A stretch of 64,000 nt of DNA from Bacillota bacterium (GTDB lineage Bacteria; Bacillota; Sulfobacillia; SLMV01), in the NCBI GenBank assembly GCA_046483165.1, contig JAWODQ010000096.1, positions 7,667-71,666 on the forward strand, read 5' to 3'. The position numbers and the translations under genes were made by a program. Positions 13,414 through 45,383 of the stretch are shown here, piece after piece; the first letter of the stretch is position 1; every line of letters starts with the position of its first letter. The notes under the pieces are model-generated. The model saw only the letters and a list, made by a program, of their open reading frames with translations, was not told where the DNA came from and did no database searches.

Positions 13414-14277
13414 TCAATCCCGCCGGATGCGGAAAGCATCTTGCAGGTGCTCCCGAGTGGTCGGGTCAAAATCTCGAAATGCCGGCGCCCCCTCTCCATC
13501 GTACCCCAGGGTGTCTTCGAAGGTTCGGTGTTCCGATCTGTAGAATATGCCGATCGGTATTTCCTCGCCCCAAACTTCCGCGAGTCTCCTGGCCTCCTCC
13601 AGGTCCGAGATATCGTGACTCTCGTCGATCTTTCTCACGCGCTCCCGATACCAGGCAAAGGTGTTGTGGCGGTTGAAAGTTACGCAGGGCTGCAGTATGT
13701 CCAACAGAGCATAACCGCGGTAGGTAATCGCCGCCTTCATTAATTCCTTCAGGTGGTCGGGATCTCCGCTGAATCCTCGGGCCACGAATCCGGCACCGGC
13801 CGCCAGCGCGATATATAGGGGGTTCAGCGGCGAGCTCTTCACTCCATCCGTTTGCACGGGGGTCTGCATGCCCGGATCGCTGGTGGGACTCGCCTGGCCT
13901 TTGGTCAGGCCGTAAATCTGGTTATTGTGCACGAAATGGGCCAGGTTGGGGTTTCTCCGAACGTTGTGCAGGAAATGATTCCCACCCTCCCCGTAGGTGT
14001 CTCCGTCGCCCGATTCCACTATACAGACCAGGTTGGGATTGGCTACCCGTGAGCCCAATGCTACGGGAAGAGCGCGGCCGTGAAGACCGTTGAATCCATT
14101 TACCCGAACGTAATGGGGAGTTTTCGCCGCCTGCCCGATGCCGGAACATATCAACACTTCGTGGGGCTCCAGTTCGAGTTCCGCGAGGGTCTCTTCGAGT
14201 GTTTTTAGGATGGCGAAATTGCCGCATCCGGGGCACCAGGCCGGGGTGTCCACTCCCTTCGTGAAAGGGTTAGACAT
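13414..14277 (-). CDS. korB: 2-oxoacid:ferredoxin oxidoreductase beta subunit (TPP-binding)
   Basis: 287 aa: AWCPGCGNF...GIGQAA...GDGDTYGEGGNHF matches the TPP-binding fold of KorB/OorB. It overlaps the korA stop by 8 nt. Confidence 0.85.
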   Translation of the reverse strand: MSNPFTKGVDTPAWCPGCGNFAILKTLEETLAELELEPHEVLICSGIGQAAKTPHYVRVNGFNGLHGRALPVALGSRVANPNLVCIVESGDGDTYGEGGNHFLHNVRRNPNLAHFVHNNQIYGLTKGQASPTSDPGMQTPVQTDGVKSSPLNPLYIALAAGAGFVARGFSGDPDHLKELMKAAITYRGYALLDILQPCVTFNRHNTFAWYRERVRKIDESHDISDLEEARRLAEVWGEEIPIGIFYRSEHRTFEDTLGYDGEGAPAFRDFDPTTREHLQDAFRIRRD

Positions 14278-15949
14278 ATTGTGCTACCTCCTCTTGGATA
14301 TCTTGCGGTGTGAACGGTCTTCCATCGTAGCGCAAGATGCTGTGGTCGAATTGCAGTCCAGTCTCACGGCGCACCAAATCGGCCAGCTGAGCGGTGTAAT
14401 TTGCTTCGACGCATATGCTCATAGATGCTCTTTGGACCATCTCTTCGAGTCTTTGGGTCGGTAAGGGCCATAGGTCGGTGAAATGTAGATGACCGACGGA
14501 CGAATCCTGTCCTTCGAGCCGCTGGCGCGCCTCGCGTAGCGCTCCGTAGGTAGAACCCCATCCGATCAGCAATAGATCCGGATCGTCGGGACCGATATAC
14601 GTGGGTTCGTCCATCGCCTCGGCCAGCCGTGCCGATTTGGACATGCGCTTTCGCATCATGGCCCGTCGCGTCGAGGCATCTTCGACGATGAATCCCCGTT
14701 CGTCGTGTTCGTCGGAATCTACCAGGACGACCTCGCCGGGGAATTGACCGGGTATCGCCCGGGGAGAGATCCCGTCTTCGGCCAGGCGATACCGGGCGTA
14801 GGGTTTCTCCAACTCGCGGGCGAGATATCTGTCGTGGGAGAGTTTTCCGAAATCGAACGGGGGAATAGTTCGAGCGGTGTCGGCGAAGTTTTGATCCGAT
14901 AGGAATATGACCGGAATCTGAAATTGGTCCGCCAGGGCGAAAGCCTTGTTGAGCCGGTAGAAGGCGTCCTCGAGGTGGGTGGCCGAGGTTACGACGCGGG
15001 GAAATTCTCCGTGTCCCGCATCGATCACGAAGGAGAGATCTCCCTGGTCGGTGCGAGTGGGAAAACCGGTCGCCGGCCCGGGGCGCATAGCCAAAACGAT
15101 CACCGCCGGCGTTTCCGTCATTCCCGCGAGAGATAATCCTTCCACCATGAGAGAAAAGCCTCCGCCGGAGGTCGCCGTCATGGCTCGTATACCGGCGTAG
15201 GAGGCGCCGAGCACCGAATTGATCGCCGCGATCTCATCCTCGGGCTGCTCCACTACTACCTCCGAGTCGCGCAGTGAAGCAAGGTAAGTCATGATTCCCG
15301 TGGCCGGGGTCATGGGATACGCGGAGTAGAAACGACAGCCACTGGCAGCGGCCGACATGCCCAGAGTTTGATTCCCGTCGAGAAAGATGGGGGATTGCTC
15401 TTCGGGGTCGGGTGGATCTATGGCAAGGGGAGTCCACTGCACACTCTCATATCCGGAAAGTAGGGCCTCGACGTTTTGTTCTCCCACCCTATCCTTGTGC
15501 GAGAAAGTCTCCAACAGTATGTTCTCAGCCCTTCGGGTGGACAGTCCGAGCAGGGCCAGGGCGGCACCCAGTGCCACCGTGTTGGCCATGATGCGTCCCC
15601 CGGCATCGCGCGCCAGCCGGTCGATGGACACCGCAACTCCCCTGTCGTCATCCGATTTGAAGTGCTTTGGATCGTAGACGAACACACCATCTTCATCCAG
15701 TTCATCCAGGTGTCGTGAGTAAGTTTCCTCATCGAGACAAAGGAGGAGGTTACAGCGATTTTCGAAGGCCCAGGGGGTGTGGGCGGCGGCGCGCAATATG
15801 GAGAAGTTGTGACCGCCCCTCACCCGCGACATGTAGTCTTTGGTGGAAAGGACTCCATATCCCTCGGCGGCGAGGATATGGCCGAGGGATGCCGCCAGCG
15901 TGTCCATTCCCTGGCCGGCCGCCCCTCCTATCATTATGTGTATATCCAT
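14270..15949 (-). CDS. korA: 2-oxoacid:ferredoxin oxidoreductase alpha subunit (fused gamma-alpha type)
   Basis: N-terminal gamma-like domain (MIGGAAGQGMDTLAASLG) fused to the pyruvate-flavodoxin/ferredoxin oxidoreductase alpha core. Start at MDIHIMIGG with SD GAAGGGATGG. Confidence 0.85.
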   Translation of the reverse strand: MDIHIMIGGAAGQGMDTLAASLGHILAAEGYGVLSTKDYMSRVRGGHNFSILRAAAHTPWAFENRCNLLLCLDEETYSRHLDELDEDGVFVYDPKHFKSDDDRGVAVSIDRLARDAGGRIMANTVALGAALALLGLSTRRAENILLETFSHKDRVGEQNVEALLSGYESVQWTPLAIDPPDPEEQSPIFLDGNQTLGMSAAASGCRFYSAYPMTPATGIMTYLASLRDSEVVVEQPEDEIAAINSVLGASYAGIRAMTATSGGGFSLMVEGLSLAGMTETPAVIVLAMRPGPATGFPTRTDQGDLSFVIDAGHGEFPRVVTSATHLEDAFYRLNKAFALADQFQIPVIFLSDQNFADTARTIPPFDFGKLSHDRYLARELEKPYARYRLAEDGISPRAIPGQFPGEVVLVDSDEHDERGFIVEDASTRRAMMRKRMSKSARLAEAMDEPTYIGPDDPDLLLIGWGSTYGALREARQRLEGQDSSVGHLHFTDLWPLPTQRLEEMVQRASMSICVEANYTAQLADLVRRETGLQFDHSILRYDGRPFTPQDIQEEVAQYV

Positions 15950-16091
15950 TTTGATCCATCCCTTCAAGTGCACAAGATATACGCATTTTTACCACGCAAA
16001 CCGGGTTGCTCAAACCGAAGGTCCGGGGAGGGGATTGATGGGGTCGAAGCGAAGCGCGAGTTAATGCATTGCGGGAGGGTTGGTCGTCATT

Positions 16092-24660: not shown

Positions 24661-26913
24661 GTGAACAGCGTACCAATTATGGCAAACGTGAAAAAGAATC
24701 GAGACACATTGTCCGCTCGCGTGCTCAACGTCCGATATTCCTCGCCCGATTCCCTGTGGAAAGTGGTTTCGGTCGAAAGTGACGCGGGGGTTGCCACCGT
24801 AGTCGGGGAATTTCACGAGATAGAGGAAGGCCTGGAATATACTTTCGAGGGACGCTGGGACGTTCATCCGAAGTTCGGCGAACAGTTTCGCGCCGAAAGT
24901 TATCGGCCGAGTCCACCGACGACTCGTCGGGGTATGATAGCCTATCTTTCCAGTGGGCTGATTCGAGGTATCGGCCCGAAGATGGCGGCCCGGATAGTGG
25001 AGCGTTTCGGCGAGGATACATTCGACGTGATCAGCAATTCTCCCGGCCGACTGTTGGAAGTGCCCGGGATAGCGGAAAAGAAGAAGGAACAGCTGATCGA
25101 TTCTTTCGAACAACATAGAAATCTACAGGAGGTCGTCACCTACCTCACCGGATTGGGACTGACGGCGAACATGGCCGTAAAGCTCTATGAAGAGTACGGT
25201 GACGATACCGTCGCGGTAATCCAGGGTGATCCCTACAGGCTCACCAGAGACATTTTCGGCATAGGTTTCAAGAGGGCCGACGCCATCGCCTCCGCGGCGG
25301 GAGTCGATCCGCGGGCACCGAGCCGGTTGCGGGCTGCCCTCGTCTACGTTCTGCGCAGGAGCGCTGAATCCGAGGGCCATACCTATCTTCCTCGCGATGT
25401 ACTCCTCGAGCGCACCTGTCGGCTCCTCGGCGTGGGGCAGGGTGGTGCTGAACCGGACGTTCCGACGCTGGACGACGTCCGAGGCGCCCTGATCATGTGT
25501 GAGAGTACGGGGGAAGTAGTGACGGTGGACGAGGCCATCTACCTGCCCCATTACCTGGAGGCGGAACGCCGGGTTGCCGCACGACTGAGTCACATTCACG
25601 AGGCCGGCGCCGTCACGGCACCTTCTTCCGAGTTGATAGCCCGCGCCACGGAAATGGCCGAATCCCGCCTCGGCATCGAATACGCGGAAGAGCAGAAGAA
25701 GGCCGTCGCCGGGAGCTTTTCCGCGGGGGTCATGGTGGTCACCGGAGGACCGGGCACCGGGAAGACAACCATAGTCCGGGGCATAATCGAGACCTCAGAA
25801 TACCTCGCTGGCGGTTTGCGGGTATTGCTCGCCGCTCCCACTGGAAGGGCGGCCCGGCGTCTGGGTGAGGTGGCGGAACGCGAGGCTACCACCATACATC
25901 GACTGCTGGGTTACGGATTCGTCGAGGGGCAACCGATATTTCGCAACGACGCGGAAAACCCCCTCGAGGGTGACGTATTGATCGTGGACGAGTCCTCCAT
26001 GGTGGACATCGAGTTGGCCGCCCACCTGCTCGACGCCATACCGGATTCCATGCGGGTAATCTTCGTCGGGGATGCCGACCAGCTCCCATCGGTGGGGCCG
26101 GGAAACTTCCTTCGGGACCTCATCGAATCCCGCGCACTCCCCGTCGTTCGTCTCAGCAGGATTTACCGCCAGGACGAGGTTTCCGACATCGTGATCAATG
26201 CCCACCGCATAAATAATGGAGAGATGCCGCGCTTTTCCCCCGGAGGCCAAAGCCATTTCGTCTCCCGCGATGACCCCACGAGCATCTGCAAGGCGGTCGT
26301 CAAGCTGGTGGACGACCTCGTCAATCGGGGTCCGTATTCGTTATCCGATCTCCAGGTCCTGAGCCCGATGCACCGTGGCCCGGCCGGCGTCAGCAACCTC
26401 AATGCCGCCATACAGGAGCGTATGAATCCCGGTCGACCCACCCTACCCGAGGTCAAGGTTGGTGCGGTTACCTATCGGTTGGGTGATAAGGTCATGTGCC
26501 TCCGCAACAATTATGAAAAGGGTCAATTCGGTATCTTCAACGGTAATCAGGGCATCGTGGTAGATGTCCTCTCGCCCGACGAAGAGGAAGTGGACGAGGA
26601 CACGCTGGAGATCGACTTCGACGGGGAATTCGTGCGCTACGGGCGACGGGAGCTCAACGAAATCACCCTGGCGTATGCGAGCACCGTCCACAAGTCGCAG
26701 GGCAGTGAATACCCCGCCGTCATCGCGGTCGTCAGCCTCAGCCATTACGTAATGTTGCAGAGGAATCTCCTATACACTGCGGTAACCAGGGCGCAGAACC
26801 TGCTAATGCTGGTGGGACAGGCGAAGGCGGTCGGCATCATGATCGCCAACGATCGGGTCCGCGAGCGCTACTCGCGAATGGCGGATATGCTGGCCGAGGG
26901 TAGTTTCACGTAG
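24661..26913 (+). CDS. recD2: ATP-dependent RecD-like DNA helicase (RecD2)
   Basis: 750 aa. N-terminal OB/HhH region. Walker A GGPGTGKTT. VDESSMVD (Walker B). A C-terminal SH3-like segment and motif VHKSQGSEY. Confidence 0.85.
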   Translation: MNSVPIMANVKKNRDTLSARVLNVRYSSPDSLWKVVSVESDAGVATVVGEFHEIEEGLEYTFEGRWDVHPKFGEQFRAESYRPSPPTTRRGMIAYLSSGLIRGIGPKMAARIVERFGEDTFDVISNSPGRLLEVPGIAEKKKEQLIDSFEQHRNLQEVVTYLTGLGLTANMAVKLYEEYGDDTVAVIQGDPYRLTRDIFGIGFKRADAIASAAGVDPRAPSRLRAALVYVLRRSAESEGHTYLPRDVLLERTCRLLGVGQGGAEPDVPTLDDVRGALIMCESTGEVVTVDEAIYLPHYLEAERRVAARLSHIHEAGAVTAPSSELIARATEMAESRLGIEYAEEQKKAVAGSFSAGVMVVTGGPGTGKTTIVRGIIETSEYLAGGLRVLLAAPTGRAARRLGEVAEREATTIHRLLGYGFVEGQPIFRNDAENPLEGDVLIVDESSMVDIELAAHLLDAIPDSMRVIFVGDADQLPSVGPGNFLRDLIESRALPVVRLSRIYRQDEVSDIVINAHRINNGEMPRFSPGGQSHFVSRDDPTSICKAVVKLVDDLVNRGPYSLSDLQVLSPMHRGPAGVSNLNAAIQERMNPGRPTLPEVKVGAVTYRLGDKVMCLRNNYEKGQFGIFNGNQGIVVDVLSPDEEEVDEDTLEIDFDGEFVRYGRRELNEITLAYASTVHKSQGSEYPAVIAVVSLSHYVMLQRNLLYTAVTRAQNLLMLVGQAKAVGIMIANDRVRERYSRMADMLAEGSFT

Positions 26914-27173
26914 AGATCGAGAATGGAGGTTATCTCGCACCGGCAATCGGTGGGGGAGGCCGGACCGTGTGACATCGGTCGCATCCATATCGAGATATGT
27001 CCAAGATGCAAATGAGAGGTAAAGAGGATTATGCTCACTTCAGCCCCGCCACCACACTATGCGATTAACTCCACAGAGACACCGCCGGGGTGGTTCCCCG
27101 AGGTCAACACCTTCCATCCAACATACCCGACCGCCGTCGCGGTCACCCTCGAGGTTGCGAAACTCATTTGATC

Positions 27174-27215
27174 ATGTGAATTGCGTCACTAATTAGATTG
27201 TGATATGGTTCACAT
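27174..27215. promoter_or_regulatory. Two tandem Rex-like operator sites (candidate redox-responsive repressor sites)
   Basis: Site 1 is ATGTGAAttgcGTCACTA (27174..27191). Site 2 is TTGTGATatggTTCACAT (27198..27215), matching 16/18 of TTGTGAAnnnnTTCACAA. They lie ~100 nt upstream of the ECF-S gene, which precedes the hydrogenase operon. Confidence 0.4.
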
Positions 27216-27316
27216 GGATTGGGAGAGCCGACGCAACGCCGCCGAAAGGGGCGTGCCGGACTCTCCGAGTAATGGAAGCACGATGCATTTTCTTGATTCG
27301 AGAGGGTGACGGTATT

Positions 27317-27820
27317 ATGAGTGTCGATTCGAGCAGCAATGCCTCGTCCACAACGCGATGGATCACCCGTACCGCCCTGCTGTTGGCGCTGACTCTGGCA
27401 TTTCAGATGATCGGGCTGCCGCAACCGGTGACCGGACCGGCCGTAAACGCGATGTTGATCCTCAGTGCGCTAGTCGTCGGACCCGTGTCCGGAGTCATAA
27501 TCGGAAGCCTCACTCCGGTAATTGCCTTCCAGCGCGGCATCCTGGCGGCTCCGCTGGGCCCGATGATTCCCTTTATTGCCCTGGCTAACGCGGTATTGGT
27601 GCTGCTTTTCGCCCTGGTGCGGAAGCGTCAACCGGTACTGGCGGTGGTGGTAGCGGCCGTAGCGAAATTTGCCGTTTTGGCCACGGCAGTTCGCGTGTTC
27701 GTCGCGGTGCCTCCGCCCATCGCCGTGGCGATGGGAACTCCGCAACTATTGACCGCACTGATCGGTGGAGGCGTGGCACTTATTGCATATCGAGCCATAG
27801 GTCGCATACTGAAGGACTGA
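27317..27820 (+). CDS. ECF transporter substrate-specific (S) component, ThiW/QueT-like small membrane protein
   Basis: 167 aa with 5-6 TM. SD GAGAGGGTGA upstream. No A/T components are adjacent, so it is a solitary S component. Substrate not assignable. Confidence 0.6.
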   Translation: MSVDSSSNASSTTRWITRTALLLALTLAFQMIGLPQPVTGPAVNAMLILSALVVGPVSGVIIGSLTPVIAFQRGILAAPLGPMIPFIALANAVLVLLFALVRKRQPVLAVVVAAVAKFAVLATAVRVFVAVPPPIAVAMGTPQLLTALIGGGVALIAYRAIGRILKD

Positions 27821-27893
27821 AGGCAGATTTATGGCACTCGGTGGGCGAATTCGGTAGGGGTTTCGGCCCCGGTGAAGGGAGAGATATTTCACC

Positions 27894-28427
27894 ATGAATA
27901 GTTTCGATGTCTGTCGCTGTACGGAAGTACCCACGCGGCACCTGTCACCGCCCTCGGTCGTTACCTCGGGTGAACGAGGGCAGTTTGACCCGGCGGATCC
28001 GGGGGGGCTGATTCCTCTGATGCAGGCCACTCAGGAGGAGTTCGGATATCTGCCGCGGTCAGAAGTTGCCCGCATCGCGGATTATCTGGGATTGTCCGAA
28101 GCTCGAGTGTACGGCGTGGCGACTTTTTACAACCAATTTCGTCTCGAACCCCTGGGCAAGAATTACGTTCAGATTTGTACCGGGACCGCCTGTCACGTGA
28201 AGGGGGCGGCCGAGATACACTCGGTACTGCGGGCCGAACTCGGCCTGGAGGGTGAGAGTACCACGACCCGAGATGGGCTCTTCACTTTGGATACGGTCGC
28301 CTGCCTGGGTGCCTGCAGTATGGCTCCCCTGGTGAATGTCAACGACGAGTTTCACGGACACATGACACCGCAAAAAGCCCTCAAATTGATTCGCGGCCTT
28401 CGGTCGAAGGAGCGTGAAGCGCGATGA
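27894..28427 (+). CDS. hydC: [FeFe]-hydrogenase complex NuoE-like [2Fe-2S] subunit (HydC/HndA type)
   Basis: Thioredoxin-like 2Fe-2S fold (CTGTACHVKGA...CLGACSMAP). The ATGA overlap with the next gene suggests coupling. Confidence 0.8.
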   Translation: MNSFDVCRCTEVPTRHLSPPSVVTSGERGQFDPADPGGLIPLMQATQEEFGYLPRSEVARIADYLGLSEARVYGVATFYNQFRLEPLGKNYVQICTGTACHVKGAAEIHSVLRAELGLEGESTTTRDGLFTLDTVACLGACSMAPLVNVNDEFHGHMTPQKALKLIRGLRSKEREAR

Positions 28428-30274
28428 ATCGAGAAGATAGCGGCTACACCACAATCATCGTCGGTACCGGTACCTGCGGATTGGCCGCGGGAGCCCGCCA
28501 GATCTACGATTACTTCGCGGAACGGATCGCGGAATCGGGCTCGGAAGATCTCGTCCTCAAAAAGACCGGTTGTCTCGGCTATTGCACCATGGAACCCATG
28601 GTAGACGTCGAGTTGCCGAAATGGCCCCGGGTGTCCTTCGGTCCGGTAACACCGGAGAACGTCGAGTTTCTTTGGGACATGATTGCCAGTGGGGGCGCCG
28701 TGCCGAAGGACTTCATTTTGGGCACGCACTCTCCGGCGGACGGCATTCATGAACTTCACGATGTCCCGCTGCTTTGGGACACGCCCTTCTTTCGTCGGCA
28801 AAAGAGGCTGGTCTTGCGCAACTCGGGCATCATAGATCCGGAATCCCTCGAGGAATACGTGGGGGTCGGAGGGTACGAGGGTCTACGATCTGCTCTAAAG
28901 ATGTCTCCCAAAGAAGTGATCGAGGAGGTCAGGCGAGCCGGGCTGCGCGGCCGCGGCGGAGCCGGTTTCCCCACCGGGTTGAAATGGCAATTCGCTCACG
29001 AAGCGGAAGGTGATGAGAAATTTATCATCTGCAACGCGGACGAAGGCGACCCCGGAGCATTTATGGATCGCTCCATACTGGAAGGTGACCCGCACGCGGT
29101 CATAGAGGGTTTGGTCATCGCCGCCTACGCCATCGGAGCCTCGGAGGGGTACGTATACTGCCGCGCCGAGTATCCCCTCGCCATCGCGCGTCTTACGGGC
29201 GCGATATCGCAGGCCAAAAGTGCCGGCTATCTCGGAGACGACATCGGCGGCAAGGGATTTTCTTTCAATCTTAAGATTAAAAAGGGTGCCGGGGCTTTCG
29301 TCTGCGGTGAAGAGACTGCGCTGATCGCCTCCATTGAGGGAAGACGAGGTATGCCCCGTCCCCGTCCACCCTACCCGGCGCAATCGGGCCTTTGGGGTAA
29401 GCCGACCAACATCAACAACGTCGAGACTATCGCGAACGTCCCGCTGATTTTGGGCGGGGGAGCCGAAGCATTTCGTAACTACGGGACGGAGAACAGTCCC
29501 GGCACCAAGGTATTCGCTCTCGCGGGGAAGGTTAAGCGAAGCGGCCTGGTCGAGGCTCCCATGGGCATGCCCCTGCGGGATATCATTTTCGATATCGGTG
29601 GTGGTGTGGCGGATGACAGGGAGTTCAAGGCCGTCCAGATAGGTGGGCCTTCCGGGGGATGCCTGCCCGAGGAGCTTTTGGATACCCCGGTTGACTACGA
29701 CTCACTGGTCGAAGTCGGAGCCATGATGGGATCCGGCGGTATGGTGGTCATGGATGAAGATACCTGCATGGTCGACGTGGCTCGTTTCTTCCTGAACTTC
29801 ACCGCCTCCGAATCCTGTGGCAAGTGCCTACCCTGCCGCGAGGGCGTGGCGCGTTTGCGGGAAACCCTAAACGGTATCGTGAGAGCTCACCGCGACGAAT
29901 CCCCCGAGGAGAGCCTGCTACGCTTCCAGGGGGTCACGATGATGGAAGAACTCGCGGAAGTCATTCAGGGGACCGCAGCGTGCGGATTAGGCCAGACGGC
30001 TCCGAATCCGGTCTTGAGTACCCTCAAGTATTTCCGCGACGAGTACGATGCCCACGTGTTCGAAAGGCGCTGTCCCGCCGGCGTATGCTCTGCGCTGTTG
30101 GAGTACTACATCGATCCCGACGTTTGTACGGGCTGCGGCCTGTGCGTGCGCAAGTGTCCCGACGACGCCATAATCGGTGAGAAACGCCACCCGCACTACA
30201 TCGCGGCGGACAAATGCATAAGTTGCGGTACCTGCCGCCAGTTCTGCCCCTTCGGTGCCATCAAGGTAAGGTAG
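28424..30274 (+). CDS. hydB: [FeFe]-hydrogenase complex NuoF-like flavoprotein subunit (HydB/HndC type; FMN + NAD(H) binding, Fe-S)
   Basis: N-terminal [2Fe-2S] thioredoxin-like domain (GTGTCGLAAGA). NuoF core (GRGGAGFPTGLKW, ...ESCGKCLPCREG). Two C-terminal ferredoxin-like Cys clusters (CTGCGLCVRKCP, CISCGTCRQFCP). Confidence 0.85.
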   Translation: MNREDSGYTTIIVGTGTCGLAAGARQIYDYFAERIAESGSEDLVLKKTGCLGYCTMEPMVDVELPKWPRVSFGPVTPENVEFLWDMIASGGAVPKDFILGTHSPADGIHELHDVPLLWDTPFFRRQKRLVLRNSGIIDPESLEEYVGVGGYEGLRSALKMSPKEVIEEVRRAGLRGRGGAGFPTGLKWQFAHEAEGDEKFIICNADEGDPGAFMDRSILEGDPHAVIEGLVIAAYAIGASEGYVYCRAEYPLAIARLTGAISQAKSAGYLGDDIGGKGFSFNLKIKKGAGAFVCGEETALIASIEGRRGMPRPRPPYPAQSGLWGKPTNINNVETIANVPLILGGGAEAFRNYGTENSPGTKVFALAGKVKRSGLVEAPMGMPLRDIIFDIGGGVADDREFKAVQIGGPSGGCLPEELLDTPVDYDSLVEVGAMMGSGGMVVMDEDTCMVDVARFFLNFTASESCGKCLPCREGVARLRETLNGIVRAHRDESPEESLLRFQGVTMMEELAEVIQGTAACGLGQTAPNPVLSTLKYFRDEYDAHVFERRCPAGVCSALLEYYIDPDVCTGCGLCVRKCPDDAIIGEKRHPHYIAADKCISCGTCRQFCPFGAIKVR

Positions 30275-30287
30275 GAGGAGAGGCCAA

Positions 30288-32042
30288 ATGTCAAAAATAA
30301 GGATGACCATAAACGAGAGACCCGTCGAGGTCGAATCCGGTGCCACGATCCTGGAGGCGGCCCGGCGCGCTCGAGTAAACATCCCCACTCTGTGTCATAT
30401 CGACGGATTGGAGCCCACGGGTTCGTGCCGAATCTGTTCGGTGGAGGTCGAAGGGCGGGCTAACCTGGTACCCTCCTGTGCCGAGCCGGCCTCGGATGGA
30501 ATGTCGGTTCGTACCAACAGCCCACGGGTCCTGACGGCCCGGCGCCATATGATTCAGTTGCTCCTGGCCAATCATCCCGACGATTGTTTGTACTGCGCGC
30601 GGGGTGGAGAATGCGACCTCCAGGACCTCGCCCAGAATGTGGGCATCAGGGAACGCGCCTGGCGACGCGGGAGACACCGGAGTCATCCCGTCGACCGCAG
30701 CAGCCCGAGCGTGGTTCGAGACCCGGAAAAATGCATTCTCTGCGGTAAGTGCGTGCGAGTGTGCGACGAAATTCAGGGTGTGGCTGCCATCGATCACGCC
30801 GGACGGGGTTTTGATAGTTTTGTCCTTCCCGCCTTCGATGACGAGCTGGCGTCTACGATTTGCGTAAACTGCGGACAGTGCGTCGCCATATGCCCCACCG
30901 GTGCCCTGGTGGAAAGAAACGACCTGGCCCGAGTCCGCCACTTCCTATCCGATGAGTCGCTGGTTACCGTGGTGCAGACGGCTCCGGCAGTCCGAGCGGC
31001 ACTGGCGTGGGAGTACGGTCTATCGGGTCGGGAGGCCGAAGCGAAGATGGTGACAGCGCTGCGGGATATGGGATTCTCCTACGTATTCGATACCCAATAC
31101 AGTGCCGACCTCACCATAATGGAGGAGGGTACGGAACTTCTGGATCGCATTCGAGAAGGTGGCCCTCTGCCGCTGATAACTTCCTGTTCGCCCGGATGGA
31201 TCAAGTTCGCAGAGCACTTCTATCCCGAACACCTGGACAATTTGTCCACGTGTAAGTCACCGCAGCAGATGCTCGGTGCCATGGTCAAGAATTACTGGGC
31301 GGAAAAGCAGGGGATCTCGCCGAAAGACATACGCGTGGTGTCGGTGATGCCCTGCACCGCCAAGAAGTTCGAGGCGGAGCGCCCCGAAATGGAAACGGTG
31401 GGCGGACGAGACGTCGACGCGGTGATAACCACCCGGGAACTGATATCCGCCTTCGCAGAGATGGGTCTGGATTTCGACGACGTGGAGGAGGGCCAATTCG
31501 ACGGCTTCCTCGGCGCCTCTTCCGGCGCCGGCGCGATATTCGGCACCACCGGTGGAGTGGCCGAGGCGGCATTGCGGACCGTCTATAATCTCCTGGTGGG
31601 GGAGAATCCGGGAGCAGATGATTTCTCCGCAGTACGAGGACCCGACGGCATAAAGGAGATAGAGATCTCCCTGCCGGAGGGAGGTTCCGTAAGAGGCGCC
31701 GTGGTACACGGGTTGCGTAACGCTCGCCGGGTCATGGACGCCATTTCTTCGGGCCAGGCGAACTACGCCTTCGTGGAGATAATGGCCTGCCCCGGCGGCT
31801 GTGTCGGTGGTGGCGGACAACCTTACGGCAACGACCGCGAGCGCACCGCGAAACTGGCGGCAGAATTGTACGAAATTGACGAGACGAGGACGATTCGCTT
31901 CTCGCACGAGAACCCGGATGTAATTCGGGCCTATCGAGAATACCTCGAGGCTCCGGGGGGGCCGGAGAGTCACCGGTTGTTACACACCACTTACCGCCCC
32001 CGGTCCCGGTATCGGGCGGAGGACGACGACCTGCTTGGCTAG
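30288..32042 (+). CDS. hydA: [FeFe] hydrogenase catalytic subunit (M3-type, HydA/HndD-like)
   Basis: N-terminal 2Fe-2S. His-ligated 4Fe-4S. Two ferredoxin-like 4Fe-4S clusters. H-cluster motifs L2 MPCTAKKFE and L3 EIMACPGGCVGGGG. The L1 motif reads TSCSPGW, with Ser where the second Cys of TSCCPxW is expected. Confidence 0.9.
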   Translation: MSKIRMTINERPVEVESGATILEAARRARVNIPTLCHIDGLEPTGSCRICSVEVEGRANLVPSCAEPASDGMSVRTNSPRVLTARRHMIQLLLANHPDDCLYCARGGECDLQDLAQNVGIRERAWRRGRHRSHPVDRSSPSVVRDPEKCILCGKCVRVCDEIQGVAAIDHAGRGFDSFVLPAFDDELASTICVNCGQCVAICPTGALVERNDLARVRHFLSDESLVTVVQTAPAVRAALAWEYGLSGREAEAKMVTALRDMGFSYVFDTQYSADLTIMEEGTELLDRIREGGPLPLITSCSPGWIKFAEHFYPEHLDNLSTCKSPQQMLGAMVKNYWAEKQGISPKDIRVVSVMPCTAKKFEAERPEMETVGGRDVDAVITTRELISAFAEMGLDFDDVEEGQFDGFLGASSGAGAIFGTTGGVAEAALRTVYNLLVGENPGADDFSAVRGPDGIKEIEISLPEGGSVRGAVVHGLRNARRVMDAISSGQANYAFVEIMACPGGCVGGGGQPYGNDRERTAKLAAELYEIDETRTIRFSHENPDVIRAYREYLEAPGGPESHRLLHTTYRPRSRYRAEDDDLLG

Positions 32043-32063: not shown

Positions 32064-34139
32064 ATGAGTGTAGTTTTCACGCTGCCCGACAAATGTCGGC
32101 GTTGTTACTACTGCGTGCGGGAATGTCCCGTTAAGGCGATACGCGTCATCGGGGGACAGGCGGAGGTCGTGGAAGATCTCTGCATCTCCTGCGGGACATG
32201 CCTGCGAGTTTGCCATCAAAAGGCCAAAACCTACCGCGACGATGTGCCGCGATTGGAAAAGATGCTGGCCGAAGATCAGCCCATAGTCGCCATCCTGGCT
32301 CCCTCCTTCGTGGCTTCTTTTACCGACGTAAAGCCGGGCCAGGTGGTGGAAGCCACCTCGCAACTGGGCTTCGATGCCGTAGTGGAGGTGGCCTTCGGAG
32401 CCGAACTGGTGGCCGATGCCTACTCGAGTTTCGTGGACGATTTCGAAAGCGGCGCCGAGGTTGCCGGCAAAGCCCCCTACATCTCCACACCCTGCCCTGC
32501 GGTGGTGAATTTCGTGGAGAAGCACCATCCGGAGCTCATGCCACATATGGTGCCGATCGTGTCGCCGATGGTCGCCCTTTCGCGTTATCTGAAGGCTCGA
32601 GCGCGCGAGAAGGGAGAACCGGTGCCCTCCATAGCCTTCTTCGGACCGTGCACTGCGAAGAAGGCGGAGACGGACTGGGGTTTGCCCGAGGATGACGATC
32701 CGGAAATCGCCTTGACCTTCCGGGAACTCGCGGCGATGTTTTCCGATCGAGATATCGACGTGGCGAAGCTTCCGAGCCGGGAATTCGACCCCCCCCACCC
32801 GACCCTGGCCCGCCTGTTTCCGGTCTCCGGTGGGCTCATCAGATCGGCCGCCCTCGCCGCCGATATATTGGATTCCTCTATCTTGGTCGCCGAGGGCAAA
32901 GAAGACGTCGAAGACGTGATATCCTCGGTGGCCAATGGCCGCGTGGACTACCACTTCGTGGATTTGCTCTTTTGTGAGGGTTGTATAGATGGGCCAGTCA
33001 TAGATTCCGATCTTTCCCTCATGGAACGAAGGGAAAGGGTGGTCAAATACACGCGCGAGGCGAGAAAACTACGCGAGTCGGAACCGCGAGAACTACCCCG
33101 GGGACTGGACCTCTCTCGGCGTTTCCGCCCGAGAGACGTATCCCTGCCCCTACCCGACGAGTCGGAAATCCGTCGGATCCTGTCGCGAGTCGGCAAGCAC
33201 GACCCCTCGGACGAACTTAACTGTGGCGCCTGCGGGTATCCTACCTGCCGGGACAAGGCCATCGCCGTTTACCGAGGCCTGGCGGAGCCGGAGATGTGCC
33301 TTCCCTACATGGTGGAACAGCTGGAAGAAGCGCTGGAGGAGCTGGAGTACTCGTATGGGGAACTGCACAGCACCTACGACAAGCTTCAGGAAACCCAGGA
33401 AGAATTGGTCCAGGCGGAAAAACTATCTTCGCTCGGACAGCTTTCGGCGGGGGTGGCGCACGAGCTGAACAATCCCCTGGGCGGGATATTGCTCTACGCG
33501 GATTTGATACGCGAAGAACAGGCGCCCGGTGAGGTGGAAGACTACGTGAAGACCATCCGACGTGAGGCGGCGCGATGCCGCGACATAGTGACGGGACTTC
33601 TGAATTTCGCCCGGCAATCGCGAGTTCAAAAGGAAGAAGTGGCCCTGAACGAATACGTCGCCAGCGTCAGTGAGGATTTCGCACGCGGTCTACCCGAGGA
33701 TATTAAGCTTAGGCTCAATCTCGATTCCTCCGACCAACTGAGGGCTGAGCTCGATCCCGGGCAGATGCGCCGCGTCTTGATAAACCTGTTGGGCAACTCC
33801 CGAGATGCCGTCGGCGACGCCGGGGAGATCACGATCTCTACCCGATACCTGGAGGGCGAAGACGAGATATTGATAGCCGTAGAGGACGACGGGGTTGGCA
33901 TCCGCGAATCCGACATGTCTCGAGTGTTCACCCCATTCTTCACCACGAAGGAACCGGGTAAAGGCACCGGATTGGGGATGCCCATCGCCTACGGAATCGT
34001 GAAAATGCACCGGGGGAAGATCGAGGTTAACTCCGAAGAGGGTCGGGGGACGGAAGTAACCATATCGATACCCCGTCGCTCGGCCCCGGATACGACCCCC
34101 GAACTTCTGGGGGTAGATCGCGAAAGACCTTTTACTTAA
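32064..34139 (+). CDS. Sensory-type [FeFe]-hydrogenase domain (HydS-like) fused to a histidine kinase
   Basis: N-terminal 2x[4Fe-4S] ferredoxin Cys motifs. H-domain with STPCPAV, GPCTAKKAE and FCEGCIDG (all four H-cluster Cys present). Cx2Cx4Cx16C motif (CGACGYPTC...C). Coiled coil. HisKA (GVAHELNNPLGG) and HATPase_c (GTGLGMPIAYGIV). Confidence 0.8.
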   Translation: MSVVFTLPDKCRRCYYCVRECPVKAIRVIGGQAEVVEDLCISCGTCLRVCHQKAKTYRDDVPRLEKMLAEDQPIVAILAPSFVASFTDVKPGQVVEATSQLGFDAVVEVAFGAELVADAYSSFVDDFESGAEVAGKAPYISTPCPAVVNFVEKHHPELMPHMVPIVSPMVALSRYLKARAREKGEPVPSIAFFGPCTAKKAETDWGLPEDDDPEIALTFRELAAMFSDRDIDVAKLPSREFDPPHPTLARLFPVSGGLIRSAALAADILDSSILVAEGKEDVEDVISSVANGRVDYHFVDLLFCEGCIDGPVIDSDLSLMERRERVVKYTREARKLRESEPRELPRGLDLSRRFRPRDVSLPLPDESEIRRILSRVGKHDPSDELNCGACGYPTCRDKAIAVYRGLAEPEMCLPYMVEQLEEALEELEYSYGELHSTYDKLQETQEELVQAEKLSSLGQLSAGVAHELNNPLGGILLYADLIREEQAPGEVEDYVKTIRREAARCRDIVTGLLNFARQSRVQKEEVALNEYVASVSEDFARGLPEDIKLRLNLDSSDQLRAELDPGQMRRVLINLLGNSRDAVGDAGEITISTRYLEGEDEILIAVEDDGVGIRESDMSRVFTPFFTTKEPGKGTGLGMPIAYGIVKMHRGKIEVNSEEGRGTEVTISIPRRSAPDTTPELLGVDRERPFT

Positions 34140-34205
34140 ACCGGCGGGGTACGCAATGTCCGCTAGGGGCGAAAGATACCCGCAATAATTACTGGAGGTG
34201 GGAAG

Positions 34206-34598
34206 ATGGCCCGCATATTGATGGTAGATGACGACGCCGATTTTTTGGATTATGCCTCCCGGGTGCTACGACGCGGCGAGCACACGGTATCTACGGCCCA
34301 CAATGGCGTGGAGGCTCTGGAGATACTGAAGAGTGACTGCGAGTTCGACCTGGCCATTTTGGATCTTATGATGGAAAAGAGCGATGAAGGTTTCACTCTC
34401 GCTCACCGGGTTCGTGAGTTTTTGGGAGAAGACGGCCATATCATGATACTTACCGGGGTTCGCCGCACCCACGATTTGGGATTCGATCTGCACTCGGCCA
34501 GCGGTAGCAAGTGGATCGACGCCGACGATTTCGTCGAGAAGCCCATTTCCTCGGAAGATCTACTCGAACGAGTCCGCCGATTGGTCGGGGAGCAGTGA
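34206..34598 (+). CDS. Single-domain response regulator (receiver only)
   Basis: 130 aa CheY-like: MVDDDADF...LDLMME...KPI, with no output domain. SD GGAGGTGGGA upstream. Confidence 0.8.
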   Translation: MARILMVDDDADFLDYASRVLRRGEHTVSTAHNGVEALEILKSDCEFDLAILDLMMEKSDEGFTLAHRVREFLGEDGHIMILTGVRRTHDLGFDLHSASGSKWIDADDFVEKPISSEDLLERVRRLVGEQ

Positions 34599-36115
34599 TG
34601 GCGGACGAGGCTTTGAGCCCCGAGGAGACTCGGGATGTGCTCTCTTTCGAGGAAACCCCGGCGGTCATCGTAATGGATGATGAGGAGTCCATCAGGCTCG
34701 GCTGCGAGAAAGTCCTGAATCGCGAAGGATTCGAGGTAACTGTAGCCCCCGACGGAGAAACCGGTTGGGATCTCCTGCGAGATGGAGACTTCGATCTGGC
34801 ATTGATAGACCTGAAAATGCCGGGAATCGACGGCATGGGGATACTGAGCCTCATTAACGAAAACCTTCCCGACGTCGTCCCGATAGTCATAACCGGTTAC
34901 GCTTCGTACGAGACCGCCGTCGAGACGGTCAAGTTGGGAGCGTATGATTACATCCCGAAACCTTTCACACCGGATGAGCTGCGCAATGTGGTGCGACGCG
35001 GACTCGAGCGACGCTTTCTGCGCCTGGCAAATCGTCGCCTGCGCGAGGAACGGCGGCGTTTCCTCCTGGATCTCACCGAGGAACGCAGTCGCCTGATGAC
35101 GATACTCCGAGCGATGTCTGACGGCGTACTCGTGGTTAACCGGCGCGGGGAACTGGTCTTGACGAACCCGGTGGGCCGGCGTTTGCTGACCGACGATTTC
35201 GACGCATCCTCCGAGAAACCACCTTCGCTTGGGCGAGTGTTGAAGTACCCGGACATAGCCGATCTGGTGGCGCGAGTGGAGTCCGATCCCGAGCTCGAGG
35301 GCTGCGATGCGGAGGTGGATACTTCTGACGATCGCGTCTTCCACTCCACCGCCACGGCCGTCCGCGACGACGATGGTACCTATCTTGGTGCCGTCATAGT
35401 ATCGCGAGATGTGACCGAGCGGCGAGAGATCGAGAAGATGAAGAGCGCCTTCGTCCGGATGGTCTCTCACGAGCTAAAATCACCCCTGGCCGCGGTCCAG
35501 GGTTACCTCGAGCTCCTTATCGACGGCGACGTATCCGAAGAGGATCGCGATCATATGCTGCGGCGCTGCCGGACGAGACTGGAAGCATTGCAGGAGATGA
35601 TCGGGGATCTTCTGGATCTGTCCCGGATCGAAAGCGGGGCCTCGGGGCGTGAACTGCGGAAGCAGGGTGTCGGCGAGGTATTGGAGGATATCGTCGAGTT
35701 GCAGCGAGATCTCGCCGCCGCGCGGGAGATAGACATTCAGCTGGAGGTCGGCGGCAGGCCGGAAATCGTGGCGGATCGGCGGGAACTGGAGGAGATATTC
35801 ACAAACCTGGTTTCCAACGCGGTGAAATACAACCGGGATGGCGGCTCCGTCTCGGTAGAAGTTGAGGATTCGGGCGACCGGCTCGTGGCAACGGTTTCCG
35901 ATACCGGTATAGGGATGGATTCGGGATCTCTGGACCATGTGTTCGACGAATTCTACAGGGTCCGCAGTGCCCAAACTGCAAAAATAGCGGGAACTGGCCT
36001 TGGCCTGGCCATCGTCAAGCGTCTCGTGGAAGCCTATGATGGAGATATCGGGGTGGAGAGCTCGCCGGGAGAGGGGACGACTTTCCGGGTGGAGCTGCCC
36101 AAAAACCCCACGTAA
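34598..36115 (+). CDS. Hybrid sensor histidine kinase (N-terminal receiver + PAS + HisKA + HATPase_c)
   Basis: Start ATG overlaps the previous stop (TGATG). REC (VMDDEESI...DLALIDLKMPGIDG). PAS-like region. HisKA (VSHELKSPLAAV). HATPase (GTGLGLAIVKRLVEAYDGDIGVES). Confidence 0.8.
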   Translation: MADEALSPEETRDVLSFEETPAVIVMDDEESIRLGCEKVLNREGFEVTVAPDGETGWDLLRDGDFDLALIDLKMPGIDGMGILSLINENLPDVVPIVITGYASYETAVETVKLGAYDYIPKPFTPDELRNVVRRGLERRFLRLANRRLREERRRFLLDLTEERSRLMTILRAMSDGVLVVNRRGELVLTNPVGRRLLTDDFDASSEKPPSLGRVLKYPDIADLVARVESDPELEGCDAEVDTSDDRVFHSTATAVRDDDGTYLGAVIVSRDVTERREIEKMKSAFVRMVSHELKSPLAAVQGYLELLIDGDVSEEDRDHMLRRCRTRLEALQEMIGDLLDLSRIESGASGRELRKQGVGEVLEDIVELQRDLAAAREIDIQLEVGGRPEIVADRRELEEIFTNLVSNAVKYNRDGGSVSVEVEDSGDRLVATVSDTGIGMDSGSLDHVFDEFYRVRSAQTAKIAGTGLGLAIVKRLVEAYDGDIGVESSPGEGTTFRVELPKNPT

Positions 36116-42899: not shown

Positions 42900-43496
42900 G
42901 TGCCCAGCGACGCGAACTGTGTTCCCGAAGAGGAGCCGAAGGACGAGGTCCGCTCTCGCCGAAGAGAGGAAGAGTTGCGAGAGCAGCTCAGGCTGGTGGG
43001 CGAGGAAGCGGAGGATCTCAGGGAACAGGTAGATTCCCTGCGCGATGCCCTGGCCCGGGCGCGCGCGGATTACAAGAATTTGAAAAAACGGCAGAGTCGC
43101 CGCATGGAACAGATGCGGGATGAGATGCGGGGGGAGATCGTAGGCAGTTTTCTTCCCGTGATCGATGACCTGAATCAGGTTTTGCAAAACACCGCGGACC
43201 GATCGGATGACCCCGTGCGCCAGGGGGTGGAAATGATACTCGTCAAGATCGAAGATATCCTTTCCGATATGGATGTATCTCGAATCGAAACCGTGGGAGA
43301 GGATTTCGATCCCAACTGGCACGAGGCCTTGGAATACGTGCCCGCGGACGATCGACCGGATGGCACCGTGATTGCAGAATTGAGTGCGGGGTTTAGAATG
43401 AAAGATCGACTCCTCAGGCCGGCCCGGGTGCGAGTGGCTCGGAACGCGTCCGAGGAGAATTCAACAGATTCCCGCGACGACGTTAAGGAGGAGTAA
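42900..43496 (+). CDS. grpE: Nucleotide exchange factor GrpE
   Basis: GrpE coiled-coil and beta domain ([18 protein letters not shown]...[44 protein letters not shown]). Start chosen at GTG 42900 after GGAGG. The ORF extends to 42840. Confidence 0.8.
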
Positions 43497-43500
43497 AGAT

Positions 43501-45336
43501 ATGGCGAAAGTGTTGGGCATAGATCTCGGAACGACGAATTCGGCCATGGCCATAATGGAGGGTGGAGACCCGACCATAATCCCCAACGCGGAGGGTACCC
43601 GGACCACTCCGTCGGTCGTGGCGTTCAGCAAGGAAGGCGAAAGACTGGTCGGCCAGGTCGCCAAGCGTCAGGCGGTGGTCAACTCGGAACGGACCGTCAC
43701 CTCGATCAAGCGGAAGATGGGGACCGACCACCTGGTGAAAATCGACGATCGCGAGTACACGCCCCAGGAAATCTCGGCCTTCATACTGCAGAAGCTGAAG
43801 ACCGACGCCGAGGAATACCTCGGGGAAAGCATTCAGCAGGCGGTCATTACCGTACCCGCCTATTTCACGGACAGCCAGCGCCAGGCCACCAAGGATGCCG
43901 GAAAGATTGCCGGGCTCGAGGTACTTCGCATCATTAACGAGCCAACCGCGGCCTCTTTGGCCTACGGACTGGACCGGGAGGAAGAGGACACGACGATCCT
44001 GGTCTACGACCTGGGCGGCGGCACCTTCGATGTCTCCGTTTTGGAGCTCGGAGAGGGCGTATTCGAAGTCAAGGCCACCAGCGGAGACAATTTGTTGGGT
44101 GGCGACGATTTTGACCAGCGCGTCGTGGAGTGGATGATCGAAGAATTCAAAAAGGACCAGGGAATCGATCTCTCCAAGGATCGCCAGGCGAAACAACGCC
44201 TCATCGAGGCCGCCGAGAAGGCGAAAGTGGAACTCAGCAGCACGCTGCAAACCAACATCAGCTTGCCCTTCGTCACCGCGGATTCCTCCGGACCGAAGCA
44301 CCTCGAGCTGGTCCTGACTCGGGCCAAGCTGGAAGATCTCATATCGGATCTGGTGGAGAAGACCGTAGGCCCGATCAAGCGGGCTATGGAGGATGCCGGG
44401 GTCACGCCCGAGGACGTGGACAACGTGATTCTCGTCGGAGGCTCCACGCGCGTTCCGCTGGTGCAAAAGCGGGTCAAGGACGTGCTCGGCAAGGACCCCT
44501 TCAAGGGGATAAACCCCGACGAAGTGGTCGCCCTCGGCGCCGCGATTCAAGCTGGAGTACTGTCGGGCGAAGTCAAAGATGTACTGCTCTTGGACGTTAC
44601 ACCGCTGTCTTTGGGTATCGAAACCCTGGGCGGCGTGTTCACCAGGCTGATCGAGCGCAATACCACGATTCCCACCAAAACCAGCGAGATCTTCTCCACC
44701 GCCGCGGACAACCAGACCACGGTGGAGATACACGTCCTTCAGGGTGAGCGACCGATGGCGGCGGACAATCGTACCCTCGGCAGGTTTCGGTTGGAGGGAA
44801 TACCGCCGGCCCCGAGAGGCGTGCCGCAAATCGAGGTCACCTTCGACATAGATGCCAACGGAATCCTGAACGTTTCGGCCAAAGACAAGGCCACAGGCAA
44901 AGAGCAGAGCATCACGGTCGAGTCTTCCAGCGGTTTGGAGGAAGACGAGATCGAAAAGATGCGCAAGGAAGCCGAAGCGCACGCCGAAGAAGACCGCAGA
45001 CGCAAAGAGAGAGCCGAGGCCCGAAACGAGGCCGATACCGCGGCATACTCGGCGGAGCGCACCATCAAGGAGTTGGAAGATAAGGCGGATGAATCCCTCG
45101 TCGAAGAGGCGCGCAACAAGATGGAGAATCTCAAGGAAATCCTCGCCGATGATGAACCCGATATCGAGGCCATGAAGTCCGCTACCTCCGAACTCACGGA
45201 CGCCATTTATCGGCTGAGCTCCTCCGCGTACGAGGCTTCCGGTGACGAACAGGCCGCCGCCGGCGATGGCGACGGCGGAGACGCCGACGGAACTGATGGC
45301 GGAGACGTGGACGCGGACTACGAAGTGGAAGAATGA
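43501..45336 (+). CDS. dnaK: Chaperone DnaK (Hsp70)
   Basis: [14 protein letters not shown]...DLGGGTFD...EVKATSGD... matches over the full 611 aa. Confidence 0.97.
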
Positions 45337-45383
45337 GGCGAACGGACCGGTTTTGTGACCTCGGCCCGATGGGGGGAAGCTGA

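Follow-up and report, generated by a model that had tools for sequence, protein, structure and literature searches.

Two tandem palindromes upstream of an [FeFe] hydrogenase operon in an uncultured member of the Bacillota are functional protein-binding DNA sites, as a comparison of related loci shows. The motif, together with published control of [FeFe] hydrogenase genes by Rex, makes Rex the most likely binder, and we put the probability that Rex binds the sites at about 60%. Rex is a repressor that senses the NADH/NAD+ ratio. The pair had been described as tandem Rex-like operators in an earlier, sequence-only reading, and this description as Rex-type, operator-like sites is upheld by the phylogenetic footprint and by the gene content of the locus.

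Organization of the hydrogenase locus

The window, meaning the whole 64-kb stretch of DNA that was analysed, has a G+C content of 58.4% and comes from an organism known from metagenomes. The genes around the palindromes are the following.

24661-26913: recD2-type helicase gene, the 5' neighbour of the ECF-S gene
27317-27820, + strand: gene for an ECF transporter S component (ECF-S), 167 aa, first gene of the putative operon (PF12822)
27894-28427, + strand: hydC, NuoE-like thioredoxin-like 2Fe-2S subunit (PF01257, E = 2e-46)
28424-30274, + strand: hydB, NuoF-like FMN/NADH subunit carrying additional 4Fe-4S domains (PF01512, PF10589, Fer4)
30288-32042, + strand: hydA, catalytic subunit of [FeFe] hydrogenase (PF02906 with E = 6e-92, PF13510, PF10588, PF02256)
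32064-34139, + strand: hydS-HK, fusion of a sensory-type [FeFe] hydrogenase domain with a histidine kinase (PF02906, PF04060, HisKA, HATPase_c)
34206-36115: two further phosphorelay proteins, a stand-alone receiver and a Rec-PAS-kinase, 3' of hydS-HK

Both inverted repeats lie inside the 403-nt gap that separates the helicase gene from the ECF-S gene. The intergenic distances between hydC, hydB, hydA and hydS-HK are -4, 13 and 21 nt. The hydrogenase genes closely follow the ECF-S gene, as had been proposed, with a gap of 73 nt (27821-27893) rather than 74 nt; the start of the ECF-S gene, previously given as 27318, is the ATG at 27317. A terminator scan across 26800-28000, which includes the gap between ECF-S and hydC, detected no terminator-like site. 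The short distances between the genes and the absence of a terminator between ECF-S and hydC indicate that ECF-S, hydC, hydB, hydA and hydS-HK most likely form a single operon.

Two other coding possibilities in the region were rejected. An N-terminal extension of ECF-S from a GTG at 27200 would read through leaders that differ by indels among the relatives, and alignments with the homologues begin at the ATG at 27317. A small ORF at 27032-27163, located behind an RBS-like sequence, has no Pfam match, and its start codon has no counterpart in locus L001.

Two palindromes upstream of the ECF-S gene

The gap contains three matches to a TGTGA-type inverted repeat.

27174-27191, no strand: putative operator site 1, the weaker Rex-type inverted repeat, ATGTGAATTGCGTCACTA (assigned by consensus and conservation)
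27198-27215, no strand: putative operator site 2, Rex-type inverted repeat with an exact core, TTGTGATATGGTTCACAT (assigned by consensus and conservation)
26968-26983, no strand: third, weak TGTGA-like match, TGTGACATCGGTCGCA, with one core mismatch

The Rex consensus is TTGTGAANNNNTTCACAA (PMC6391272). Compared with TTGTGAA-N4-TTCACAA, site 1 matches at 11 of 14 informative positions and site 2 at 12 of 14; within the core TGTGA-N6-TCACA the values are 9/10 and 10/10, so that site 1 is indeed the weaker of the two. The match of site 2 to the consensus had been counted as 16 of 18 positions. The match stands, and the count needs correction, as it includes four N. Six bases (27192-27197) lie between the sites, in agreement with the spacing first noted, and their centres are 24 bp apart.

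The two sites are the two top-scoring matches to TTGTGAA-N4-TTCACAA when the 64-kb window is scanned. Site 2 is the sole exact TGTGA-N6-TCACA in the window, where an estimate from base composition predicts ~0.04 exact matches per 64 kb. With one mismatch or fewer allowed in the core, the window contains 4 matches against 0.91 expected, a number reached by none of 100 shuffles, and three of the four fall within 26968-27214. Matches of such quality number ~1.7 per 100 kb in unrelated locus sequence totalling ~700 kb. By our estimate, this background rate would give fewer than 0.001 tandem pairs within 40 nt per window.

Short palindromes do arise by chance, and the weak match at 26968-26983 is probably an example, its palindrome being kept in neither L001 nor L004. 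The idea that sites 1 and 2 are likewise chance matches with no function conflicts with the two estimates above, for the exact core and for the tandem pair. It is also contradicted by the near-perfect retention of both sites in relatives whose ECF-S proteins are 73-76% identical to that of the window and whose flanks are ~30% identical. This footprint, laid out below, already refutes the idea.

Conservation of the sites in related loci

An alignment of ECF-S homologues was used to scan one genome per species, yielding 80 loci. The gene order recD2, ECF-S, hydC, hydB, hydA, hydS-kinase is common to six of these within the reach of their contigs (L001, L002-L004, L017 and L060). Identity of the ECF-S protein to that of the window is 90% in L001 and 73-76% in L002-L004. 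Palindromes resembling site 1 and site 2 are located ~120-155 nt 5' of the start codon in the same-order loci, with L060 keeping one of them. Pairwise identities of the individual segments were calculated from an alignment of the window with L001-L004.

Site 1: 0.91
Site 2: 0.98
Inter-site spacer (6 nt): 0.28
Upstream flank: 0.32
Leader: 0.33

Between the window and L001, the sites are 100% identical. The alignment shows that both sites are under strong purifying selection while their surroundings have diverged. Identities of 0.91-0.98 within the sites, compared with ~0.3 in the spacer, flank and leader, identify them as real protein-binding DNA sites.

Where the sites vary, the changes break the palindrome with no compensating change, as in the TCAC to TAAC substitution in L002. 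The right half of site 1 is itself imperfect as a palindrome and is uncompensated. Such breaks point to recognition of DNA by a protein and not to pairing within an RNA.

A further, partly conserved block lies just 5' of site 1.

27155-27167, no strand: partly conserved block, TTGCGAAACTCAT in the window

The block reads TTCCGAAATTCGT in L001 and L002 and appears as variants in L003 and L004. Pairwise identity over 27153-27173 is 0.57, compared with 0.32 farther upstream.

Genes that the sites accompany

In the metagenome contig L165, which has no ECF-S gene, a tandem pair, likewise spaced by 24 bp, lies directly 5' of hydC-hydB-hydA. One member of this pair is a perfect TTGTGAATCAGTTCACAA. 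Two Atribacterota loci, L019 and L077, have single Rex-like sites 5' of hydrogenase genes. The ECF-S genes of Mahella, Halothermothrix and Geochorda, which lie in other gene contexts, have no Rex-type site upstream. Outside the clade of the window, a Rex-type match within 300 nt upstream is present in only four other ECF-S loci of the 80-locus set. The presence of the pair in L165, where ECF-S is missing, and the absence of sites from most other ECF-S homologues show, at the level of these genome comparisons, that the sites track the hydrogenase operon and not the ECF-S family.

A scan of metagenomes for the tandem pattern gave at least 120 contigs. Among the matches listed, two adjoin hydrogenase genes, and the others occur in unrelated contexts that are uninformative for the window locus.

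Candidate promoters

The promoter scan of 26800-28000 found no consensus promoter. A candidate promoter that falls below the scan threshold, P1, can be read by eye within the sites themselves.

27181-27186, + strand: candidate -35 element of P1, TTGCGT, in the spacer of site 1
27201-27209, + strand: candidate extended -10 element of P1, TGaTATGGT, in the spacer of site 2

The hexamers are 17 nt apart and the candidate is weak: beside the TG, 3 of 6 and 4 of 6 positions match. At the putative -35, L001-L004 and L017 have TTGCGT or TTGCAT. At the -10 position, the window, L001, L003 and L004 have TATGGT, L002 has TACGGT and L017 has TATAAA. This conservation does not extend to the six bases that separate the sites.

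In L002-L004 and L060, an element that looks more like a promoter (TTGACx, 17 nt, TAGnnT) lies 3' of the sites, ahead of the start codon, and L165 contains TTGACA-18-TATAAA, 4 nt after its proximal site. The position of the downstream element suits an upstream activator or an arrangement of two promoters as well as it suits a simple repressor. Judging from the aligned loci, the simplest reading is that the relatives would have two promoters. The window and L001 have no such downstream element and keep identical sites, which indicates that the sites are independent of it.

Identity of the regulator

The core TGTGA-N6-TCACA is common to Rex operators and to sites of the CRP/FNR type. A match to this 5+6+5 core therefore does not discriminate between the two families, and other features of the sites and of the genes behind them have to be considered. 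The outer TT...AA of the 18-bp Rex consensus recurs in the sites of L017, L060, L165, L019 and L077. The genes located 3' of the sites, encoding NuoE-like and NuoF-like subunits and HydA, fit the class of Rex targets that function in NADH re-oxidation and fermentation. The sites thus combine a consensus match, conservation upstream of orthologous operons and a target-gene class in agreement with Rex operators.

Control of such genes by Rex is documented in other organisms. In Caldicellulosiruptor bescii, gel shifts demonstrate binding of Rex upstream of [FeFe] hydrogenase genes (PMC6391272). The targets found for Clostridium thermocellum Rex by DAP-seq include the Fe-only hydrogenase operon as well as a gene listed as 'energy-coupling factor transport protein' (PMC8457756). 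A preprint describes fusions of H domains to kinases with Rex genes nearby in Elusimicrobia (10.1101/765248).

A search by tblastn with a Bacillus subtilis Rex sequence, confirmed by Pfam to contain PF06971 and PF02629, found no Rex gene in the 64-kb window or in the fetched loci. Pfam likewise identified no Rex-like or CRP/FNR-like protein among 49 ORFs of the window, all but a few small or terminal ones. Because no regulator gene is present in the window, we infer both the identity of the regulator and the sign of its control.

It is conceivable, but rather unlikely, that a member of the CRP/FNR family or another dimeric regulator binds the sites as an upstream activator, acting on a promoter located 3' of them and before the start codon. 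In its core, site 2 fits the CRP/FNR type perfectly, and a good TTGACx-17/18-TAnnnT element follows the sites in L002-L004, L060 and L165. In L002-L004, the proximal site would be centred at an estimated -83 to -92, near the positions used by class I activators. Activator sites have a fixed geometry relative to the promoter, at about -41.5, -61.5 and so on. The distances from the centre of the proximal site to the -35 of the downstream element, however, are 13.5, 47.5, 50.5, 56.5 and 76.5 nt across the five lineages (L002-L004, L060 and L165). No clear helical phasing is visible in them, which speaks against a strict activator geometry. The loss of the downstream promoter from the window and L001, whose sites are 100% identical, speaks against this reading too, as do the outer TT...AA bases of the Rex consensus in the five loci named above and the absence of a CRP/FNR gene among the window ORFs scanned.

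The genes at the 3' end of the locus raise another possibility. The operon ends in a hydrogenase-kinase fusion followed by the two phosphorelay proteins at 34206-36115, and the hydS-histidine kinase, the stand-alone receiver and the Rec-PAS-kinase could form an H2-sensing relay. If the terminal response regulator of this relay bound the sites, H2 rather than NADH would set expression, and an autoregulatory loop of this kind would be plausible. We consider it improbable: a DNA-binding domain is absent from all proteins of the relay, TGTGA-N6-TCACA is not known as a motif of response regulators, and L165 has the same type of site beside an arrangement that is phosphatase-linked and not kinase-linked.

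With Rex as the favoured regulator, we propose the following mechanism. A dimeric transcription factor, most probably Rex, would bind both palindromes and control the ECF-S-hydC-hydB-hydA-hydS-HK unit. The sites would overlap the weak promoter P1, with a predicted transcription start near 27216. Because of this overlap with the candidate promoter, two Rex dimers could block RNA polymerase, covering both promoter elements when the NADH/NAD+ ratio is low. A rise in NADH would cause the dimers to leave, and the hydrogenase would be switched on, so that NADH and reduced ferredoxin would be disposed of as H2.

The leader

Two hairpins are predicted between the sites and the ECF-S start codon.

27221-27266, + strand: long GC-rich leader hairpin, GGGAGAGCC...GGACUCUCC (predicted fold)
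27286-27308, + strand: small hairpin, CAUUUUCUUG-AUU-CGAGAGGGUG, with the RBS in its 3' arm (centroid fold)

The leader of the window folds with -41.9 kcal/mol (z = -3.1), and none of 200 shuffles folds as well. The long hairpin noticed earlier in the ~100-nt leader is real and occupies 27221-27266. In the small hairpin, 27286-27295 pairs with 27299-27308. It is kept in L001, where a U-to-C change converts a G-U pair to G-C, and is not found in L002-L004. For this helix over the RBS, the analysis recognised neither a competing pairing nor a ligand-binding domain.

The sequence-only reading had suggested an attenuator or a riboswitch in this region. A leader (27216-27316) that senses the substrate of ECF-S would agree with the folding energy of the window sequence and with a second hairpin that covers the RBS and is kept in L001. 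Several observations contradict such a function. Rfam 15 gives no matches at the gathering threshold for the whole window, and none even at E<=10 for 26900-27950. The terminator scan of 26800-28000 was negative, and the U-tract reported downstream of the long hairpin is no terminator tail: the T-run at 27288-27291, ~20 nt after this hairpin, belongs to the 5' arm of the small hairpin.

The sequence of the long hairpin is present as a single copy in the window and is found elsewhere only in contigs of the same organism; the hairpin does not occur in L001-L004 or L017. For the relatives, the leader folds are no more stable than those of shuffles (z-scores from -0.8 to +0.65), and RNAalifold finds essentially no shared structure in five leaders (-1.46 kcal/mol, 6 pairs), whose pairwise identity is the 0.33 listed above. 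At 12 distant and diverse ECF-S loci, Rfam detected no known riboswitch upstream of the gene, only tRNAs. With no Rfam match, terminator or conserved structure, and with a long hairpin restricted to one organism, the riboswitch or attenuator reading is not supported and is largely refuted; we regard it as very improbable.

In the alignment, the long hairpin occupies the position of the downstream promoter-like element of the relatives. It is probably a recent, lineage-specific acquisition that replaced the second promoter-like element kept in L002-L004 and L060, and would serve at most as a stabilising stem close to the 5' end. The small RBS hairpin may mildly damp the translation of ECF-S.

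The ECF-S protein

The first protein of the putative operon matches PF12822 with 30.9 bits, just above the cut-off of 30.7, and 518 homologues were found. Its AlphaFold model (pLDDT 91.6) has seven predicted helices, one of them a short six-residue segment. The best fold matches of the model are RibU (3p5n, 5kbw) and ThiT (3rlb), with TM ~0.65 and 14-21% identity. A20 and A24 in the first helix are nearly invariant and fit the Ala-x3-Ala motif of S components. The predicted fold and the helix 1 motif agree with an S component, a class of small six-helix membrane proteins. No NCBIfam match assigns it to a substrate subfamily (RibU, ThiT, BioY, FolT etc.), and no sequence relative was found in the PDB, even by profile at E<=10. 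Both the model and the sequence comparisons indicate that ECF-S is a transporter S component outside the named substrate subfamilies.

The genomic surroundings of the family were recorded across the 80 loci. The family often adjoins genes for bifurcating hydrogenases in several phyla, and hydrogenase genes are present within 6 kb of ECF-S in 25 of the 80 species-level loci. ECF-S is located directly 5' of a nuoE-like gene in the Clostridia clade of the window, in several Atribacterota and in one Halanaerobiaceae genome.

We tentatively consider that the family could be tied to NuoE/NuoF-type (bifurcating) hydrogenases, importing a cofactor or precursor that they need under co-regulation by a redox sensor. 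This possibility is based on the 25 hydrogenase-linked loci, on the adjacency to nuoE-like genes and on the hypothetical ECF protein gene among the Rex targets of C. thermocellum (PMC8457756). A flavin as the substrate would be a guess from the RibU-like fold of the model and the FMN in HydB. In the literature searched, we found no paper linking ECF-S with HydABC.

Implications and comparison with known systems

If the sites are Rex operators, H2 production in this uncultured lineage would be coupled to the NADH/NAD+ ratio, as known from thermophilic Clostridia in culture. Such an assignment helps in the interpretation of metagenomes and leaves the understanding of Rex unchanged. Rex-type operators in front of a hydrogenase operon are a known type of regulatory site and ordinary biology. 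Three aspects go beyond the textbook: the phased pair of sites with promoter hexamers seemingly placed in their spacers, the apparent replacement of the second promoter-like element of the relatives by a hairpin in the lineage of the window, and an S component encoded by the first gene of hydrogenase operons in several phyla, which offers a testable clue to its substrate. As a lead, the ECF-S family with its link to hydrogenases is more novel than the operator sites.

Among known systems, S-component genes under riboswitch control include ribU with the FMN riboswitch and thiT with the TPP riboswitch. The ECF-S gene resembles these as a vitamin-type S-component gene behind a structured leader of ~100 nt, and its product is closest in fold to RibU and ThiT. 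It differs from them in that the window contains no known riboswitch and the leader structure is not conserved. Control appears to be exerted at the DNA level and to be shared with the hydrogenase genes.

Sites of the CRP/FNR type share the identical 5+6+5 core, which is perfect in site 2. Rex agrees better with the TT...AA flanks and the target genes, and the spacing to the promoter-like elements shows no clear phasing across lineages.

In their domains, hydC, hydB, hydA and the H-domain-kinase fusion correspond to trimeric bifurcating HydABC systems with HydS, a group assignment made by domains only. Unlike the H-domain-kinase loci of Elusimicrobia, the window has no adjacent Rex gene.

A further parallel is provided by the Rex operators (ROPs) of Caldicellulosiruptor and C. 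thermocellum. In those of C. bescii, C. saccharolyticus and C. thermocellum, the hydrogenase is de-repressed as NADH accumulates (PMC6391272, PMC8457756). As in these ROPs, an 18-bp repeat of the TTGTGAA-N4-TTCACAA type lies 5' of an NADH-linked Fe-only hydrogenase operon. The hosts of the ROPs are cultured, whereas the window comes from an uncultured Bacillota member with 58% G+C, in which Rex binding is predicted. The motif of the window is of the general TGTGA type and not of the TTGTTAA type of Clostridiaceae. Unlike the ROPs, the window has two predicted sites, 24 bp apart from centre to centre, and its operon differs from the ROP operons in starting with an ECF-S gene and ending with a hydrogenase-kinase fusion.

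Association of the ECF-S family with hydrogenase genes

The ECF S-component family encoded at 27317-27820 carries no NCBIfam name and has no sequence relative in the PDB; its predicted fold is RibU/ThiT-like. Genes for NuoE, NuoF or HydA repeatedly adjoin members of the family, at 25 of the 80 species-level loci with ECF-S homologues. The adjacency is found in the window and in L001-L005, L012, L013, L017, L019, L028, L030 and L050, and further in L060, L070, L072, L073, L077 and L080. Often a nuoE-like gene lies directly downstream of the ECF-S gene, as seen in Clostridia, Atribacterota and Halanaerobiaceae.

Rex-type sites at other loci

Overall, the region upstream of ECF-S genes shows an enrichment of the Rex-type motif of about 19-fold, with the window's own clade supplying most of the matches. 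Outside this clade, matches to at least 12 of the 14 informative positions (of the TTGTGAA or TTGTTAA variety) precede the ECF-S gene by 24-97 nt in one Thermoanaerobacteraceae, two Atribacterota and another Bacillota genome (L009 at 5971, L019 at 5888, L028 at 5901 and L076 at 1898).

An independent case of tandem Rex-type sites is present on the metagenome contig L165 (1088-1160), with 24-bp spacing and one site a perfect match. The sites end 4 nt 5' of a TTGACA-18-TATAAA element ahead of hydC-hydB-hydA. No ECF-S gene is present on this contig, and the ORF preceding the sites resembles, by eye, a PP2C-type phosphatase. Among the matches listed, the tandem TGTGA-N6-TCAC pattern occurs twice on each of four other metagenome contigs (L089, L113, L118 and L119); the two copies are separated by 48-82 nt, which gives four palindromes in a row.

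Sequence surrounding the operators

In relatives of the window, the stretch that separates the operators from the ECF-S start codon carries a conserved promoter-like element, TTGACx and TAGnnT separated by 17 nt.

Promoter-like element in the relatives
L002, 1343-1371
L003, 251-279
L004, 5927-5955
L060, 5937-5965

The element is absent from the window and L001, which have unrelated sequence at that position. In the window, its place is occupied by the long hairpin.

On the other side of the operators, a block at 27155-27167, 7-8 nt 5' of site 1, is conserved in part across the window and L001-L004. It reads TTCCGAAATTCGT in L001 and L002, including the near-palindrome CGAAATTCG; L003 and L004 contain variants, and the window's version is degenerate (TTGCGAAACTCAT). 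The block could be either UP-like or a further binding site. A third match to TGTGA-N6-TCACA, with one mismatch (TGTGACATCGGTCGCA, 26968-26983), is located about 200 nt upstream of the operator pair. As neither L001 nor L004 retains its palindrome, this match is probably due to chance.

Other genes of the window

The genes at the end of the hydrogenase operon and beyond it (32064-36115) look like a multi-step phosphorelay, with no DNA-binding output encoded nearby.

Features of the window
32064 (start), H-domain-histidine kinase fusion, last gene of the hydrogenase operon
34206-34598, stand-alone receiver protein, downstream of the fusion
about 34598-36115, Rec-PAS-HisKA-HATPase protein, after the receiver
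43483-45435 (-), 650-codon ORF with a Pfam 'NAD-GH' match
13414-15973 (-), two-subunit 2-oxoacid:ferredoxin oxidoreductase

The 'NAD-GH' ORF occupies the interval from grpE to dnaJ, on the strand opposite to these genes. It is the familiar antisense shadow ORF of dnaK and not a real gene. The region upstream of the 2-oxoacid:ferredoxin oxidoreductase genes (15974-16079) contains no Rex-type site; genes for this enzyme are a class of Rex target in other Clostridia.
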